Below are positions 27,406 to 31,559 of a stretch of 64,000 nt of DNA, in pieces. Position numbers and translations under genes: made by a program. A model generated the notes under the pieces. It had not been told where the DNA came from. It ran no database searches and worked only from the letters and a program-made list of their open reading frames with translations. Origin of the DNA: a phage; NCBI GenBank assembly GCA_012112355.1, contig GCA_012112355.1_3028.1. One strand, given 5' to 3'. Each line of letters opens with the position of its first letter. Position 1 is the first letter of the stretch.

Positions 27406-27582
27406 TCACCCTTTAAGTAAGTCGTAAAATCCACCATTCACATGCTTAGGAGCAGAAGGCCGACGAGTAGACAGACGATGACATTTAGGGCAAACATCAT
27501 TTTCTCGTTCAGAAATCTTTTTAATTTTTTCATATTCATGCCCGCAATCTTCGGATTGGCATTTATAATCATACATTGGCAT
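27406..27582 (-). CDS. small zinc-ribbon protein (~58 aa)
   Basis: Manual translation MPMYDYKCQSEDCGHEYEKIKKISERENDVCPKCHRLSTRRPSAPKHVNGGFYDLLKG; CxxxxC...CPKC pairs. Below track cutoff; coordinates approximate. Confidence 0.45.
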   Translation of the reverse strand: MPMYDYKCQSEDCGHEYEKIKKISERENDVCPKCHRLSTRRPSAPKHVNGGFYDLLKG

Positions 27583-27584
27583 AA

Positions 27585-28010
27585 TTATTCCTTAAAATGT
27601 GCTTTCAACATCTGATACAAGGACCATGCCTGTTCATTATTTTCAATAGTAACTTTCATGACAGGAAATTCTGTGAAATCTTCTATTTGTTCTTGCTCTT
27701 TCTCTTCCTGCTCTTGCTCTTCGGCTGCCTGGTATGGATTTTCCACTTCATTAAAGAACTCAGCTTCGCTCGCTGAAAGCCAGATAAAATCTTCATCCAA
27801 AATATCTTTACCAGAAGATAACGCCAATTTTCCACTAGATGTCACAAGTTTAGTAGGACGACCAAGATAGTCAATATCTGTAACTCTAAAAGGTTCCATA
27901 CCTAAACGTCGTGCATAAATTCCGTTTTCAGTATGATATTTAATAAATTTTTCTTGAGCTTGTTTATTTTTAAATTGATACCATTTATTAACTTCAAATT
28001 TAATAGCCAT
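27585..28010 (-). CDS. hypothetical protein; size and position match T4 goF (comC-alpha)
   Basis: 141-aa ORF with an acidic [12 protein letters not shown] stretch; assignment by synteny and size only. Confidence 0.4.
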
Positions 28011-28225
28011 TAATAAATTTCCTTCCAGTAAGTTGTTCCATCTTCAGTAATTTCACGAAATACACCATAAATTGGTTGTTTATCACCGACTTTCTCATAC
28101 ACATAAACCGAAGTCAAGTGAGTAAACTTAACGGTATGTTCCTTTTGAACCACTACCAAATCTGGATCAAATAATACATCTTCAAATTCGTCATTAGTGC
28201 AATTCTGAACAATTTTACGTTTCAT
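28010..28225 (-). CDS. hypothetical protein; size and position match T4 cef
   Basis: 71-aa ORF, start overlapping the upstream stop; assignment by synteny and size only. Confidence 0.4.
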
Positions 28226-28238
28226 TACAATTTCCTCA

Positions 28239-28520
28239 TTAATTAAACAGTGGAGCGATACGTTTCAGAAGAGTAGCAGCACCTTTGGCGAATTTTACAT
28301 CATGAAAAACAGTTTCTTCTTCCGTTACAACACGAGCTTTAAAGTTTTCACAATCCCAATTTTTGCGAACAATCTTCAAAAGCTGCAGTAAATCTTTACA
28401 TTCAGCAATATCAATAACACATCCACGAGAATCTTCCATTATCGCACGATAACCATAAGCCATACCGTAATCGTTGAAAGATTGCTCGATGATAATTAAA
28501 TTTTCCATTTTATTCTCCAA
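28239..28520 (-). CDS. hypothetical protein
   Basis: 93-aa ORF preceded by a promoter-like repeat at 28530-28610. Confidence 0.45.
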   Translation of the reverse strand: MENKMENLIIIEQSFNDYGMAYGYRAIMEDSRGCVIDIAECKDLLQLLKIVRKNWDCENFKARVVTEEETVFHDVKFAKGAATLLKRIAPLFN

Positions 28521-28615
28521 GTTGTTTTCTGTATCAGTAGTTGATATTGATATAGTACCATAATCAACTACTGATGTATATAGTTTTATGAAAAAATTTT
28601 AAACTTTATGCAAAT

Positions 28616-29035
28616 TTATGCTAAAGCTGCTTCGCACCATTTTTTAATTTGGAATTCAGGAACTACCATGAACTGGCCTGCAAAAACAATATTGTAGAGC
28701 TTGACACCATCTTCTACCCAACGGTCCGAAATAAAACCAGCGACTTGATTCGTTGTCCATGGAGTTCCATCTGTTGCTGCCGCAATTGTGAATTTATGGT
28801 CTTTTACAACTAAAACTGAAGAACAAAGTTTCCATTTAAATGCGCTTTCTTCTGGCTCAATGAACTGACTTGAGACATAACCAATGTTACCATCAGCGTC
28901 ACGAACTTTAACCTCGTTACGACCAAAAACTGGATCACTTACAGAAAGAACTTCAACCAGCTTTCCTGCAACTTTAGAACGAGAAGCAACGGATACATAT
29001 ACGTAATCACCAGTAGAGAGATTTACAATATTCAT
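28616..29035 (-). CDS. paralog 1 of a three-member family (motB-region position)
   Basis: 139 aa; shares the C-terminal motif FISDRWVEDGVKLYNIVFAGQFMVVPE with the two ORFs upstream. Confidence 0.5.
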   Translation of the reverse strand: MNIVNLSTGDYVYVSVASRSKVAGKLVEVLSVSDPVFGRNEVKVRDADGNIGYVSSQFIEPEESAFKWKLCSSVLVVKDHKFTIAAATDGTPWTTNQVAGFISDRWVEDGVKLYNIVFAGQFMVVPEFQIKKWCEAALA

Positions 29036-29044
29036 AATAATTCC

Positions 29045-29521
29045 TTAAGCTTTACGAGGAGAAGCATAACGAGTGATTTCAGATTCTTCAACAACCCGGA
29101 AGTCACCTAAGAATACGATATTGTATAGCTTTTTACCGTCTTCAATCCATTGGTCTGTGATGAAGCCACACATCCTATCAGTTTTACTTGGACCAGCGAA
29201 ATCATCAATATAATCGAATTCTTCATCAGTTACAAATTCAACGCCTTTACACAACGCCCATTTAAATTGTGCATTAGACTCAGTGGATTCAACTTCTTCA
29301 ACAGAAGTAAAATGAGAGCTAACACGAGTTTCCAGAAATTTAGGACTTACGTAAGCGTACTGAGTTTCAGTTTTTCCAGAACTAGGAATGATTCGAACTT
29401 TAACTTCTTTAACACGACCAGTACCATTAGTACGAAGTCCTACCACTTCAACTAGACGACCTGCAGCTTTAGAACGAGATGCAGATGATACACGCTTAAT
29501 TTCACCAATATTAATAATCAT
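29045..29521 (-). CDS. paralog 2 of the same family
   Basis: 158 aa; FITDQWIEDGKKLYNIVFLGDFRVVEE; N-terminal SASRSKAAGRLVEV similar to paralog 1 (SVASRSKVAGKLVEV). Confidence 0.5.
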   Translation of the reverse strand: MIINIGEIKRVSSASRSKAAGRLVEVVGLRTNGTGRVKEVKVRIIPSSGKTETQYAYVSPKFLETRVSSHFTSVEEVESTESNAQFKWALCKGVEFVTDEEFDYIDDFAGPSKTDRMCGFITDQWIEDGKKLYNIVFLGDFRVVEESEITRYASPRKA

Positions 29522-29565
29522 AGTTATCTCTCACTTGTTAAAAAGATTTTATACTCCACGGAACC

Positions 29566-29595
29566 ATTATACTCTGGTCCCAAGAGTTTGTAAAC
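29566..29595 (-). promoter_or_regulatory. T4-type early promoter (GTTTAC, 18 nt, TATAAT)
   Basis: Minus-strand sense GTTTAC-aaactcttgggaccagag-TATAAT upstream of paralog 2. Confidence 0.4.
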
Positions 29596-30032
29596 TAGCT
29601 TACACGAACATTAATCACTGCGCTGCGAGGAACTACAGAGTACTCTCCAGCATGAACTACGTTCAGAAGTTCAACACCATCTTCAATCCACTGATCAGTC
29701 ACCCATCCACCCACAGGATTCGCGAATGGACGACGAATATAAACTGCCTTACACAGCAGATCAGTTGGATCTTCAGGTTTTTCAATTTCTGTCAATAGAC
29801 TAAAATCTTTTTCATAAATAATAAGCGGTGATACCATTCCATAATAGTTTCTAATTTCAATATACATCATACCGATAAGAATTCCGCTATTAACACTAAT
29901 AACAGTAAAAGGATATCCGCCAGTTAAACCAAGAAGTTCACAAAACTTATTATGAGCTGTATTAGACAGTACCGAAAAATTCTTAATTTCATCAAATTTT
30001 TTCAATTGATAAACAGCATTATTTTTAATCAT
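29595..30032 (-). CDS. paralog 3 of the same family
   Basis: 145 aa; C-terminal WVTDQWIEDGVELLNVVHAGEYSVVPR. Confidence 0.5.
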   Translation of the reverse strand: MIKNNAVYQLKKFDEIKNFSVLSNTAHNKFCELLGLTGGYPFTVISVNSGILIGMMYIEIRNYYGMVSPLIIYEKDFSLLTEIEKPEDPTDLLCKAVYIRRPFANPVGGWVTDQWIEDGVELLNVVHAGEYSVVPRSAVINVRVS

Positions 30033-30042
30033 AATTTTCTCT

Positions 30043-30555
30043 TTAATCTAAGGTAATAAAGCCTTTTAATTCGGCATGGGATTTACGGAACATTACTTGG
30101 TGCCCGCCAATGATAACTTGATCATCTGGCACTTCATAAATCGCAATGTACATTCCACGTTCTTTTAAGTCTTCACGCTCTTCTCGAGTGAACCATCTCA
30201 TCATATCATATTCGCTAGAGAAAGCAAAATGATATAATGCAATAAACCACAATGGAATATAATTTTCAATTCGTGAATAATCTTTATTCCATTTAGTTTT
30301 AATAACATCATTAGCATTTTCAACTAATAACTTATCATCGTGTGGAATAGGAATACTTTCATGACTTTCATAATTATCGCTATGATGATGAAATGATGAT
30401 GAATTAATACCACAAAATTTTAACCAAGTTCGAGTTTTCATAGAATCAAATCCACGATAAGGAGTCGATTGGACGCATAACTCTTGCCTAATTTTCATTA
30501 TACCACTATCATCATTTAGCGCATTAAATGATGATTCAACACGATAAATTTTCAT
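30043..30555 (-). CDS. hypothetical protein (dexA.1-like position)
   Basis: 170-aa ORF upstream of dexA. Confidence 0.45.
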   Translation of the reverse strand: MKIYRVESSFNALNDDSGIMKIRQELCVQSTPYRGFDSMKTRTWLKFCGINSSSFHHHSDNYESHESIPIPHDDKLLVENANDVIKTKWNKDYSRIENYIPLWFIALYHFAFSSEYDMMRWFTREEREDLKERGMYIAIYEVPDDQVIIGGHQVMFRKSHAELKGFITLD

Positions 30556-30582
30556 TTTATTATCCTCAGTAGCTATGGTGTT

Positions 30583-30612
30583 ATAGTACCATAACTAACC
30601 GAGGAAGTAAAC
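30583..30612 (-). promoter_or_regulatory. T4-type early promoter
   Basis: GTTTAC-ttcctcggttagttatgg-TACTAT on the minus strand upstream of the 170-aa ORF. Confidence 0.45.
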
Positions 30613-30618
30613 AACTTT

Positions 30619-31302
30619 TTATCGTTTTGTTGGAAGAGACAGAGGATCGCATTCTTCCTCTGATGGAGCGTCTTCAAGACCCATAGCATAGCGCAAAGCA
30701 TACTTCATCATCAGGATGTCTTTCGCACAGTCATGAATGGAATCATGCGCAACGAATCCATTTAAAGTTCCCTTTGGAAGAGGACACGTGGTCATATCAC
30801 GAACAAGTAGAAGTGCTTCAATTCTAGTACGAATGTCGCGTTGATTCCAGAATTTACATGGTTCTAACTTAAATGTGTCAAGCTCATTCTCAGAAACGCC
30901 GTTAAGACGTTGAATATCGCGAATGAGATCGACTAAAATTGGAAAATCAAACGACATTCCACGGCACCAGCCTTGAGATTTCCAAGGATCGATATTATGC
31001 GCATTGATGTAATCATTAAATTTTGCAATACCATCGATAGTGCTTACATCTTCATCGGATGGTGCAATATTTTTTCTAGCTTCAGGAGATTGATTCTTCC
31101 ACCATTCAATAGTGCTTTTAGTAAAAAGACGATGTCCTTTTTGGCTTTTTAAATCAAATTTGATTTTAATGCCACGTGAAACTAATTCATCAAATGTTTC
31201 AACAACTTCCGGGTTAGGGTCAAAAGCAATTACAGCCAAATCAATAACAGCTGCTTTTTCACCGCTTCCCATTGTTTCAAAATCTATAATAAAATCAAAC
31301 AT
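30619..31302 (-). CDS. dexA: exonuclease A (DnaQ-like 3'-5' exonuclease)
   Basis: 227 aa as T4 DexA; MFDFIIDFETMGSGEKAAVIDLAVIAF (DxE exonuclease motif). Confidence 0.85.
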   Translation of the reverse strand: MFDFIIDFETMGSGEKAAVIDLAVIAFDPNPEVVETFDELVSRGIKIKFDLKSQKGHRLFTKSTIEWWKNQSPEARKNIAPSDEDVSTIDGIAKFNDYINAHNIDPWKSQGWCRGMSFDFPILVDLIRDIQRLNGVSENELDTFKLEPCKFWNQRDIRTRIEALLLVRDMTTCPLPKGTLNGFVAHDSIHDCAKDILMMKYALRYAMGLEDAPSEEECDPLSLPTKR

Positions 31303-31559
31303 TAAACTTTCCTCGCTAAATCGCGAATTTGGCCTACAGTATAGTCTTGAATATAAACTTTATTAATAGGCTCATCAATAAATTTTGCCATAGATTCAAT
31401 ATCTTTTTGTATCTCTTTAAGACTGTATACTATCTTTGAAGCTTTTTCGCGAATAGTAATATTTTCAGGACCTGGATTTTCTTCAATGACAGCTTTAACA
31501 TTTGTCATAAGAGATTTAAACTGGTACCAACTCAACTCAATCATTAATAATCGCCTCAT
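31302..31559 (-). CDS. hypothetical protein, member of a tandem ~85-aa array
   Basis: 85 aa; similar in size and residue pattern to the next ORF (Q-F..L....I.E....K....L.EI..D....F....K..I.DY..G.I..L). Confidence 0.45.
   Translation of the reverse strand: MRRLLMIELSWYQFKSLMTNVKAVIEENPGPENITIREKASKIVYSLKEIQKDIESMAKFIDEPINKVYIQDYTVGQIRDLARKV

Follow-up and report, generated by a model that had tools for sequence, protein, structure and literature searches.

The motB locus of a Tequatrovirus: two MotB copies and a MotB.1 protein with a common C-terminal domain

Three consecutive open reading frames (ORFs) in a phage DNA encode proteins that end in nearly the same stretch of residues. The locus raises the question of what these genes are, how they came to lie side by side and what the common stretch may do. 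The window (by which we mean the whole 64-kb stretch of DNA that was analysed) comes from a Tequatrovirus; over positions 27500-31400 it has 99.7% identity with Escherichia phage FriedrichZschokke (Bas41, MZ501067), and this region has matches in 713 phage records. The ORFs, of 139, 158 and 145 aa, stand where an earlier note on this DNA had put them, all on the minus strand, and lie in the early region between cef and dexA. The genes are transcribed in the order dexA (30619-31302), a MotB.2-like ORF (30043-30555), the motB.1 ortholog (ORF145, 29595-30032), the motB ortholog (ORF158, 29045-29521), a motB-like gene (ORF139, 28616-29035), ORF93 (28239-28520), cef (28010-28225) and goF (27585-28010).

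This gene order agrees with those of T4, GiZh and Bas41, which bears out the earlier comparison of the locus with the T4 motB region. Set against these three phages and six Mosigvirus or related loci, the genes occupy the position of MotB, between cef and motB.1/dexA, in the early region and on the same strand. The three genes are MotB-family early genes of T4-like phages at their usual dexA–cef site, and the family is an ordinary one for such phages, already published and annotated. Taken together, the account of identity, domain mechanism and evolution that we give below is, in our judgement, likely to be right. The PADLOC defence and anti-defence models had no match among the three ORFs or their neighbours.

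ORF158 is the MotB of this phage. It matches Pfam PF17613 over residues 1-154 (E=5.6e-43; profile positions 1-158 of 162) as well as phrog_1671 (‘MotB-like transcriptional regulator’, E=3.8e-68), and its counterpart in Bas41 carries the annotation MotB. Being 82% identical to RB69 MotB and 47% identical to T4 MotB, it is of the RB69/Mosigvirus allele type. The protein is laid out as a basic KOW-like N-terminal domain (charge +6.5), a disordered linker and an acidic (-5) C-terminal small barrel. MotB proper is a full-length combination of a KOW-like N-terminal domain bearing SRSKAAG-LVEV with the C-terminal core, and this combination is found in ORF158 and ORF139. T4 MotB (NP_049626; PF17613; Patterson-West et al. 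2018 and 2021) is like ORF158, which fits the Pfam model end to end, in genomic position and two-domain layout, and the promoter-like site upstream has its GTTTACA -35 part kept in T4; the two proteins differ, however, in sequence, as the low identity indicates, and in the charge of the C-terminal domain, which is +2.8 in T4.

ORF139 is a second, diverged full-length MotB copy. It matches the Pfam motB family (E=6.4e-20) and, over residues 5-139, phrog_1671 (E=9.8e-51; phrog positions 2-166), and proteins of its type go by the names ‘MotB-like transcriptional regulator’ and ‘motB-like protein’ in RefSeq and other records. The linker is very short (4 residues) and the N-terminal domain, with a charge of -1.3 to -1.5, is not basic. 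Judged from these two features, ORF139 is probably not simply redundant with MotB; the loss of the basic N-terminal charge points to probable sub- or neo-functionalisation. Among the 778 phage records that have any MotB relative, 208 contain an ortholog with at least 80% identity. The gene is 84-100% conserved in two genera, and T4 is without a counterpart.

A pair of the same kind is carried by RB69 and Mosigvirus phages (RB32ORF010c-type). The second copy there is 84-92% identical to ORF139 and, as in the window, lies directly 3′ of motB with the same short spacing (a 10-nt start offset in the loci); this arrangement recurs in 208 phage records. Unlike in Mosigvirus, the pair in the window sits in a Tequatrovirus backbone with T4-type flanks (dexA is 99.6% identical to that of T4), and the next gene downstream of it is ORF93, whereas in Mosigvirus a gene for a MotB.2-type protein takes this place.

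What the three proteins have in common is a motif, G[FW][IV][ST]D[QR]W[VI]EDG[VK][KE]L[YL]N[IV]V[FH][AL]G..[FY].VV. Their alignment has 25 invariant columns, most of which fall in G-x-[IV]-[ST]-D-x-W-[VI]-E-D-G-x-x-L-x-N-[IV]-V-x-x-G...VV. The motif as described in the earlier note is present in all three proteins, except that its opening ‘FI’ reads ‘WV’ in the 145-aa ORF. The regular expression has three matches and no more when all six frames of the 64-kb window are translated; the HMM yielded no further copy either, the best other ORF reaching E=1.6 with the profile. At the DNA level the motif-coding segment makes a family of direct repeats (D1) of three copies with 66-74% identity, all on the minus strand: GGWVTDQWIEDG in motB.1 (29676-29713), CGFITDQWIEDG in motB (29135-29172, the reference copy) and AGFISDRWVEDG in motB-like (28706-28743). 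The segment coding for the N-terminal SRSK-AG-LVEV is a two-copy DNA repeat (28950-28997 and 29445-29492, 79% identity) and links only the 139-aa and 158-aa ORFs, the same two in which a common SASRSK-AG-LVEV had been noticed before.

All three ORFs score above the gathering threshold of Pfam PF17613 (25 bits), with 147 bits for ORF158, 72.1 bits for ORF139 and 32.7 bits for ORF145. In BLASTP comparisons ORF139 and ORF158 align end to end (40% identity, E=1e-29); ORF145 aligns with ORF158 at E=8e-13 and with ORF139 at E=2e-11, the latter alignment covering the C-terminus only (53% identity over 32 residues).

ORF145 matches phrog_2333 (E=9.3e-68), is 80-83% identical to T4-type MotB.1 proteins of 143/144 aa, and has a Pfam motB match confined to residues 104-139. 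Profile–profile comparison of the MotB and MotB.1 C-terminal domains by hhalign gives a probability of 98.9% (E=1.6e-17, 37 columns); for the N-terminal domains the probability is 0.1%, i.e. there is no detectable homology. A BLASTP alignment had looked suggestive of homology between the N-terminal domains as well, which the profile–profile comparison ruled out. Since its N-terminal domain is unrelated to that of MotB, ORF145 is filed under MotB.1 and not under MotB. It carries the MotB.1-type C-terminal core, DPTDLLC..V.I..PF...GWVTDQWIEDGVELLNVVH.G..SVVPRS, which is invariant or nearly so in 25 diverse homologs. The description of the genes as three tandem paralogs is thus correct for the C-terminal domain and incorrect for the N-terminal domain of ORF145.

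A large part of this picture has precedent. Patterson-West et al. (2021) aligned 102 phage homologs, with MotB as Category 1 and with Categories 2-4 (including T4 MotB.1) having the C-terminal domain under different N-terminal domains (PMC7827196). The same authors proposed that one gene came from duplication of the other, and genomes with multiple copies are known, e.g. RB69 with two motB genes and one motB.1 (PMC7827196). Both the C-terminal domain that MotB.1 has in common with MotB and the occurrence of two motB genes in some phages were therefore in print in 2021, RefSeq records already name the genes, and beyond correct annotation the finding matters little. Added here are a suggested SH3/Tudor-like assignment of the shared domain, at variance with the published OB-fold, evidence that motB and motB-like travel together from one phage genus to another as a cassette, a charge pattern pointing to the N-terminal domain as the DNA binder and a quantitative rejection of the idea of diversifying selection.

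For the fold of the shared domain we used AlphaFold2 models of the whole proteins, built with family alignments. The model of MotB (ORF158, pLDDT 80.3) has two beta domains and a disordered linker (residues 67-83, pLDDT <50); the model of MotB.1 (ORF145) has a pLDDT of 82.5, rising to about 90 in the C-terminal domain. In both models the motif takes in the last part of a long strand and continues with the EDG turn, another strand (KLYNIVF / ELLNVVH), the G turn, a further strand, a three-residue helix and the last strand; the DSSP strings place the short helix after strand 4 and before strand 5 instead of between strands 3 and 4. The motif would then belong to an SH3/Tudor-like barrel of five strands, in which it would take up the last part of strand 2 and continue through strands 3 and 4 and a short 3-10 turn into strand 5, and the predicted location of the invariant EDG and G residues in tight turns would account for the strong conservation of this stretch. 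MotB and MotB.1 share sequence only in the C-terminal domain, and their common list of fold hits therefore suggests an SH3/Tudor-like small barrel for it, with the reservation that the N-terminal domains are small barrels too and may contribute to whole-model matches.

The published call for the C-terminal domain of MotB, made by HHpred, is an OB-fold (PMC7827196). An OB-fold of the cold-shock type (beta1-3, helix, beta4-5) does not agree with the models, in which the helix follows strand 4. Tudor, chromo, PWWP and KOW small beta-barrels resemble the domain in fold only, with 6-23% sequence identity and no sequence-level relationship, and sequence searches with MotB and with the C-terminal-domain profile returned no relative of solved structure below E=0.4. 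The motif holds conserved W, Y/L and F/H residues.

Experimental knowledge of MotB comes from T4. T4 MotB binds unmodified and glucosyl-hmC DNA without sequence specificity, is toxic on overexpression, alters the H-NS footprint, up-regulates 75 host genes (one third of them in the H-NS regulon) and roughly doubles the burst size (PMC6070864, PMC7827196). The evidence for its effect on H-NS was obtained in vitro and by overexpression, not in infection (PMC6070864, PMC7827196). By analogy with T4, MotB of the window would be made early and in large amounts, would coat DNA whatever its sequence and would shift how H-NS sits on DNA, leading to de-repression of H-NS-silenced host genes and an approximately doubled burst size. 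The phage protein Arn of T4, a DNA mimic, is also an H-NS antagonist, with an outcome comparable to that proposed for MotB. The same outcome, early relief or alteration of H-NS action, is proposed for T7 gp5.5 (cited in PMC7827196). Both gp5.5 and Arn are unrelated to MotB in sequence and mechanism; MotB binds DNA itself, whereas gp5.5 blocks H-NS oligomerisation.

The N-terminal domains of MotB proteins are always basic (+1.5 to +7.5, median +4.6); the charges of the C-terminal domains range from -5.3 to +2.8 in MotB and are typically -3 to -7 in MotB.1. This charge pattern makes the basic KOW-like N-terminal domain the likelier non-specific DNA binder, with DNA binding by the C-terminal domain conceivable in T4 MotB, where this domain is mildly basic (+2.8, P0095). 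The shared C-terminal barrel is more likely a common interaction or scaffold module, reused under N-terminal parts that differ: a KOW-like domain in MotB, and from one to three beta-domains of other kinds in the MotB.1 proteins.

T4 MotB.1 (Category 2; LSm-like family) has the same place upstream of motB and the same C-terminal core as ORF145; its reference entry of 119 aa, however, is without the motif, whereas the gene of ORF145 is intact. The motif is missing from the T4 reference (NC_000866.4 / AF158101.6), in which MotB.1 ends in ...TDQWIGRWR, because of a single extra G within the motif (ATTGGAAGATGG vs ATTGAAGATGG). Thirteen other records (11 T4/T4T genomes and the near-identical RB55 and RB59) are one base shorter at this place, each matching the 258-nt reference query over 257 nt. 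A check of MT984581 confirmed that this G is the base it lacks, and this genome encodes a 143-aa MotB.1 with the full motif. Neither of the two papers on MotB.1 mentions the extra G (PMC7827196, PMC12152347).

The N-terminal domain of MotB.1 was grouped with GoF and Frd.2 as LSm-like folds by Kim et al. (2025), in whose work GoF(D25Y) stabilises an mRNA and MotB.1 was without effect in a reporter assay (PMC12152347). That study cites NC_000866.4, used synthesised genes and gives 13.8 kDa for the MotB.1 product (PMC12152347), and for these reasons its heterologous MotB.1 may have lacked the conserved core. The shortening of the T4 reference ORF by one extra base could in this way affect the reading of published experiments with MotB.1.

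As to the origin of the locus, the local triplication assumed in the earlier note does not fit. Only ORF139 and ORF158 are full-length paralogs, ORF145 having about 37 C-terminal residues in common with them; the copies have an old origin and are found widely among Tevenvirinae (208/778 records contain an ORF139 ortholog); and the motB/motB-like pair looks imported as a cassette, not duplicated in place. In comparisons with six Mosigvirus-type loci dexA and cef have 66-68% nucleotide identity and dS values that exceed 2.5, are saturated or are undefined. In the same comparisons dS is 0.36-0.89 for motB and 0.50-0.68 for motB-like, with nucleotide identity mostly of 82-88% and one motB outlier of 75%. 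Low dS in the pair next to saturated flanks means that the pair was exchanged between lineages long after the backbones had diverged. Between cef and motB T4 has kept just the last 18 codons of ORF93, a remnant that marks a boundary of the replacement or deletion.

Recombination has also left traces inside the genes. Protein P0036 (contig L015) has an RB69-type MotB N-terminal domain and an ORF139-type C-terminal domain, and its contig has a single motB gene between motB.1 and cef; on this composition P0036 is a recombinant between tandem copies. The number of upstream beta-domains in MotB.1 homologs varies from one to three, a protein of a Klebsiella phage combines an N-terminal domain of the MotB-like SRS-AG kind with a C-terminal domain of the MotB.1 type, and the length of the MotB linker varies by tens of residues. 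The family has diversified through domain shuffling, indels in the linker, recombination of tandem copies and swaps of the motB/motB-like pair across phage genera. Internal duplication was considered as well and rejected, the N- and C-terminal domains of one protein being unrelated (hhalign probability ≤2%). The family is narrow: an exhaustive search of 1.84 billion representative proteins with the C-terminal-domain profile gave 28 clusters at E≤1e-3, all of small proteins matching at the C-terminus except for one borderline match to a 2612-aa protein (E=9.7e-4, 7 stretches).

Selection was estimated by Nei-Gojobori dN/dS on orthologs from 13 loci, with omega taken as a ratio of sums. Omega is about 0.13-0.14 for ORF139 (motB-like), about 0.22-0.23 for MotB and about 0.29-0.30 for MotB.1; the neighbouring genes have 0.11 (dexA), 0.06 (cef), 0.16 (goF) and 0.29 (MotB.2). 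The highest pairwise dN/dS is 0.59 and no pair reaches 1. Among the domains the motif is under the strongest constraint (0.06-0.19), and constraint is weakest in the MotB linker (0.50) and in the N-terminal domain of MotB.1 (0.45). A value of 4.97 for the 4-residue ‘linker’ of ORF139 was disregarded, there being too few sites. The three genes are under purifying selection at the level of genes and domains, pairwise averages being able to mask a few positively selected sites, and at this level the diversifying selection that had been suggested for them finds no support.

With these figures two other explanations of the locus can be weighed. That the similarity of the motif arose by chance, or that the ORFs are not genes, is practically out of the question. 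The alignment called for in the earlier note puts the similarity far beyond chance (BLASTP E-values from 1e-29 to 2e-11), all three ORFs exceed curated Pfam thresholds, their orthologs number in the hundreds and are conserved with omega<0.3, and we found nothing in favour of this reading, which we reject. We also hold it very unlikely that the genes are arms-race paralogs, i.e. a local triplication driven apart by diversifying selection through contact with a fast-changing host factor. The hyperplasticity of the region, where motB alleles differ by >50% within Tequatrovirus, would suit such a history, as would the copy number, which differs among phages, and the weak constraint on the linker and the MotB.1 N-terminal domain (omega 0.45-0.50). 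Yet omega is well below 1 in all three genes and all domains, even the pairwise maximum staying at 0.59, ORF139 is 84-100% conserved across two genera, and the N-terminal domain of ORF145 did not diverge from that of MotB; cassette replacement, not rapid divergence in place, accounts for how the alleles differ.

Other explanations concern what the domains do. The C-terminal barrel could be a protein-binding module (for H-NS/StpA, for example, or for another nucleoid or RNA-polymerase factor) and not a nucleic-acid binder, leaving DNA binding to KOW-like and RNA binding to LSm-like N-terminal domains; we regard this as a tentative possibility, well short of even. The barrel of the window's MotB and of almost every MotB.1 protein is acidic; the domain is rich in conserved aromatics, has its closest folds among the Tudor, chromo and PWWP readers of proteins and peptides, and is paired with several unrelated N-terminal domains; moreover, H-NS and StpA co-purified with T4 MotB (PMC6070864). 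The slightly basic C-terminal domain of T4 MotB speaks against it, as does the generic nature of fold resemblance among small barrels. A stronger form, decidedly doubtful in our view, is that Tevenvirinae fused an acidic, aromatic-rich, dedicated host-factor-binding module, plausibly for H-NS/StpA, to interchangeable nucleic-acid-binding N-terminal domains. If true, MotB, MotB-like and MotB.1 would deliver different activities to the same nucleoid target, and the published null result for MotB.1 in expression assays may stem from the truncated reference ORF. Finally, MotB.1 might act on RNA and not on the nucleoid, through its LSm-like N-terminal domain, having only a structural scaffold in common with MotB, which we consider unlikely. 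The grouping with GoF and Frd.2 and the stabilisation of an mRNA by GoF(D25Y) (PMC12152347) argue for this role, and goF lies ∼1.6 kb downstream with the same direction of transcription; against it stands the null in the reporter assay (PMC12152347), which is perhaps uninformative either way, as the construct was apparently made from the truncated 119-aa reference ORF.

Expression of the MotB pair, whichever role its barrel has, may start from a site directly upstream. The best promoter-like site of the region, of sigma-70/T4-early type (TTTACA-17-TATAAT, 29566-29594, minus strand, 11/12 consensus matches), lies 44 nt ahead of the motB start, within the 73 nt that separate motB.1 from motB. 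This consensus match is annotated as a host-like promoter in phage GiZh, and its -35 part, GTTTACAAACTCTTGGG, is conserved in T4. Since ORF139 starts 9 nt past the motB stop codon, motB and motB-like are probably co-transcribed early.

The motB/motB-like pair (28616-29521) is far nearer to its Mosigvirus counterparts than the adjacent genes are: in comparison with six Mosigvirus-type loci (L004-L009), dS for the pair was 0.36-0.89 and nucleotide identity mostly 82-88%, whereas dexA and cef, on either side of the region, had saturated dS and 66-68% nucleotide identity. This difference indicates that the pair has been swapped between genera as a cassette. The MotB.2-like ORF of 170 aa (30043-30555) has just 64% identity to T4 MotB.2. 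Its identity to the 'MotB.2' of Mosigvirus is 35%, and that gene is placed elsewhere, downstream of motB-like. Our search of this ORF against a local copy of Pfam produced no match; the domain PF26820 (Phage_T4_Y00F) is present in its homolog on the metagenomic T4-like contig L015.

The same contig carries only one motB (1373-1894), and its product, P0036, has an N-terminal domain of the RB69 MotB type and a C-terminal domain of the type found in ORF139, the second MotB copy; such a make-up is as expected if tandem motB copies had recombined with deletion of one copy. In T4 (L003), all that is left of ORF93 in the 170-bp gap between cef and motB is its final 18 codons (1500-1553, 89% identity to the window), a remnant that marks a deletion or replacement boundary. 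In an alignment of MotB.1-family proteins the number of upstream beta-domains varies from one to three (e.g. P0147, P0154, P0155, P0157 and P0226), and one of these proteins, P0226 from a Klebsiella phage, is a chimera with a MotB-like SRS-AG N-terminal domain and a MotB.1-type C-terminal domain. This variation shows that domains have been shuffled freely around a conserved C-terminal core.

Comparison of motB.1 of the T4 reference genome (NC_000866.4, 2292-2651) with the window gene (29595-30032) and its counterpart at locus L014 (787-1218) revealed that the reference has one additional G within the W-I-EDG motif, which cuts its product to 119 aa. Thirteen other records (eleven T4/T4T genomes, RB55 and RB59) align with the corresponding 258-nt reference stretch for just 257 nt. 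The base absent from MT984581 was confirmed to be this G, and the gene in that record encodes a 143-aa protein with a full C-terminal domain. The published MotB.1 expression study (PMC12152347) refers to the reference sequence and gives the product as 13.8 kDa, so the truncated form may have been used in that work.

Between ORF139 and ORF93, a 20-nt inverted repeat (28533-28575; 85% complementary, arms 3 nt apart) overlaps the extended -10-like sequence TGGTACTAT; it may form a hairpin or serve as a terminator or processing site. On the minus strand, a putative site found by eye upstream of the MotB.2-like ORF, GTTTACT-N17-TACTAT preceded by TGG (30583-30612), overlaps the dexA 3' end; it resembles a T4 early promoter but scores below the 9/12 threshold of the promoter scanner.
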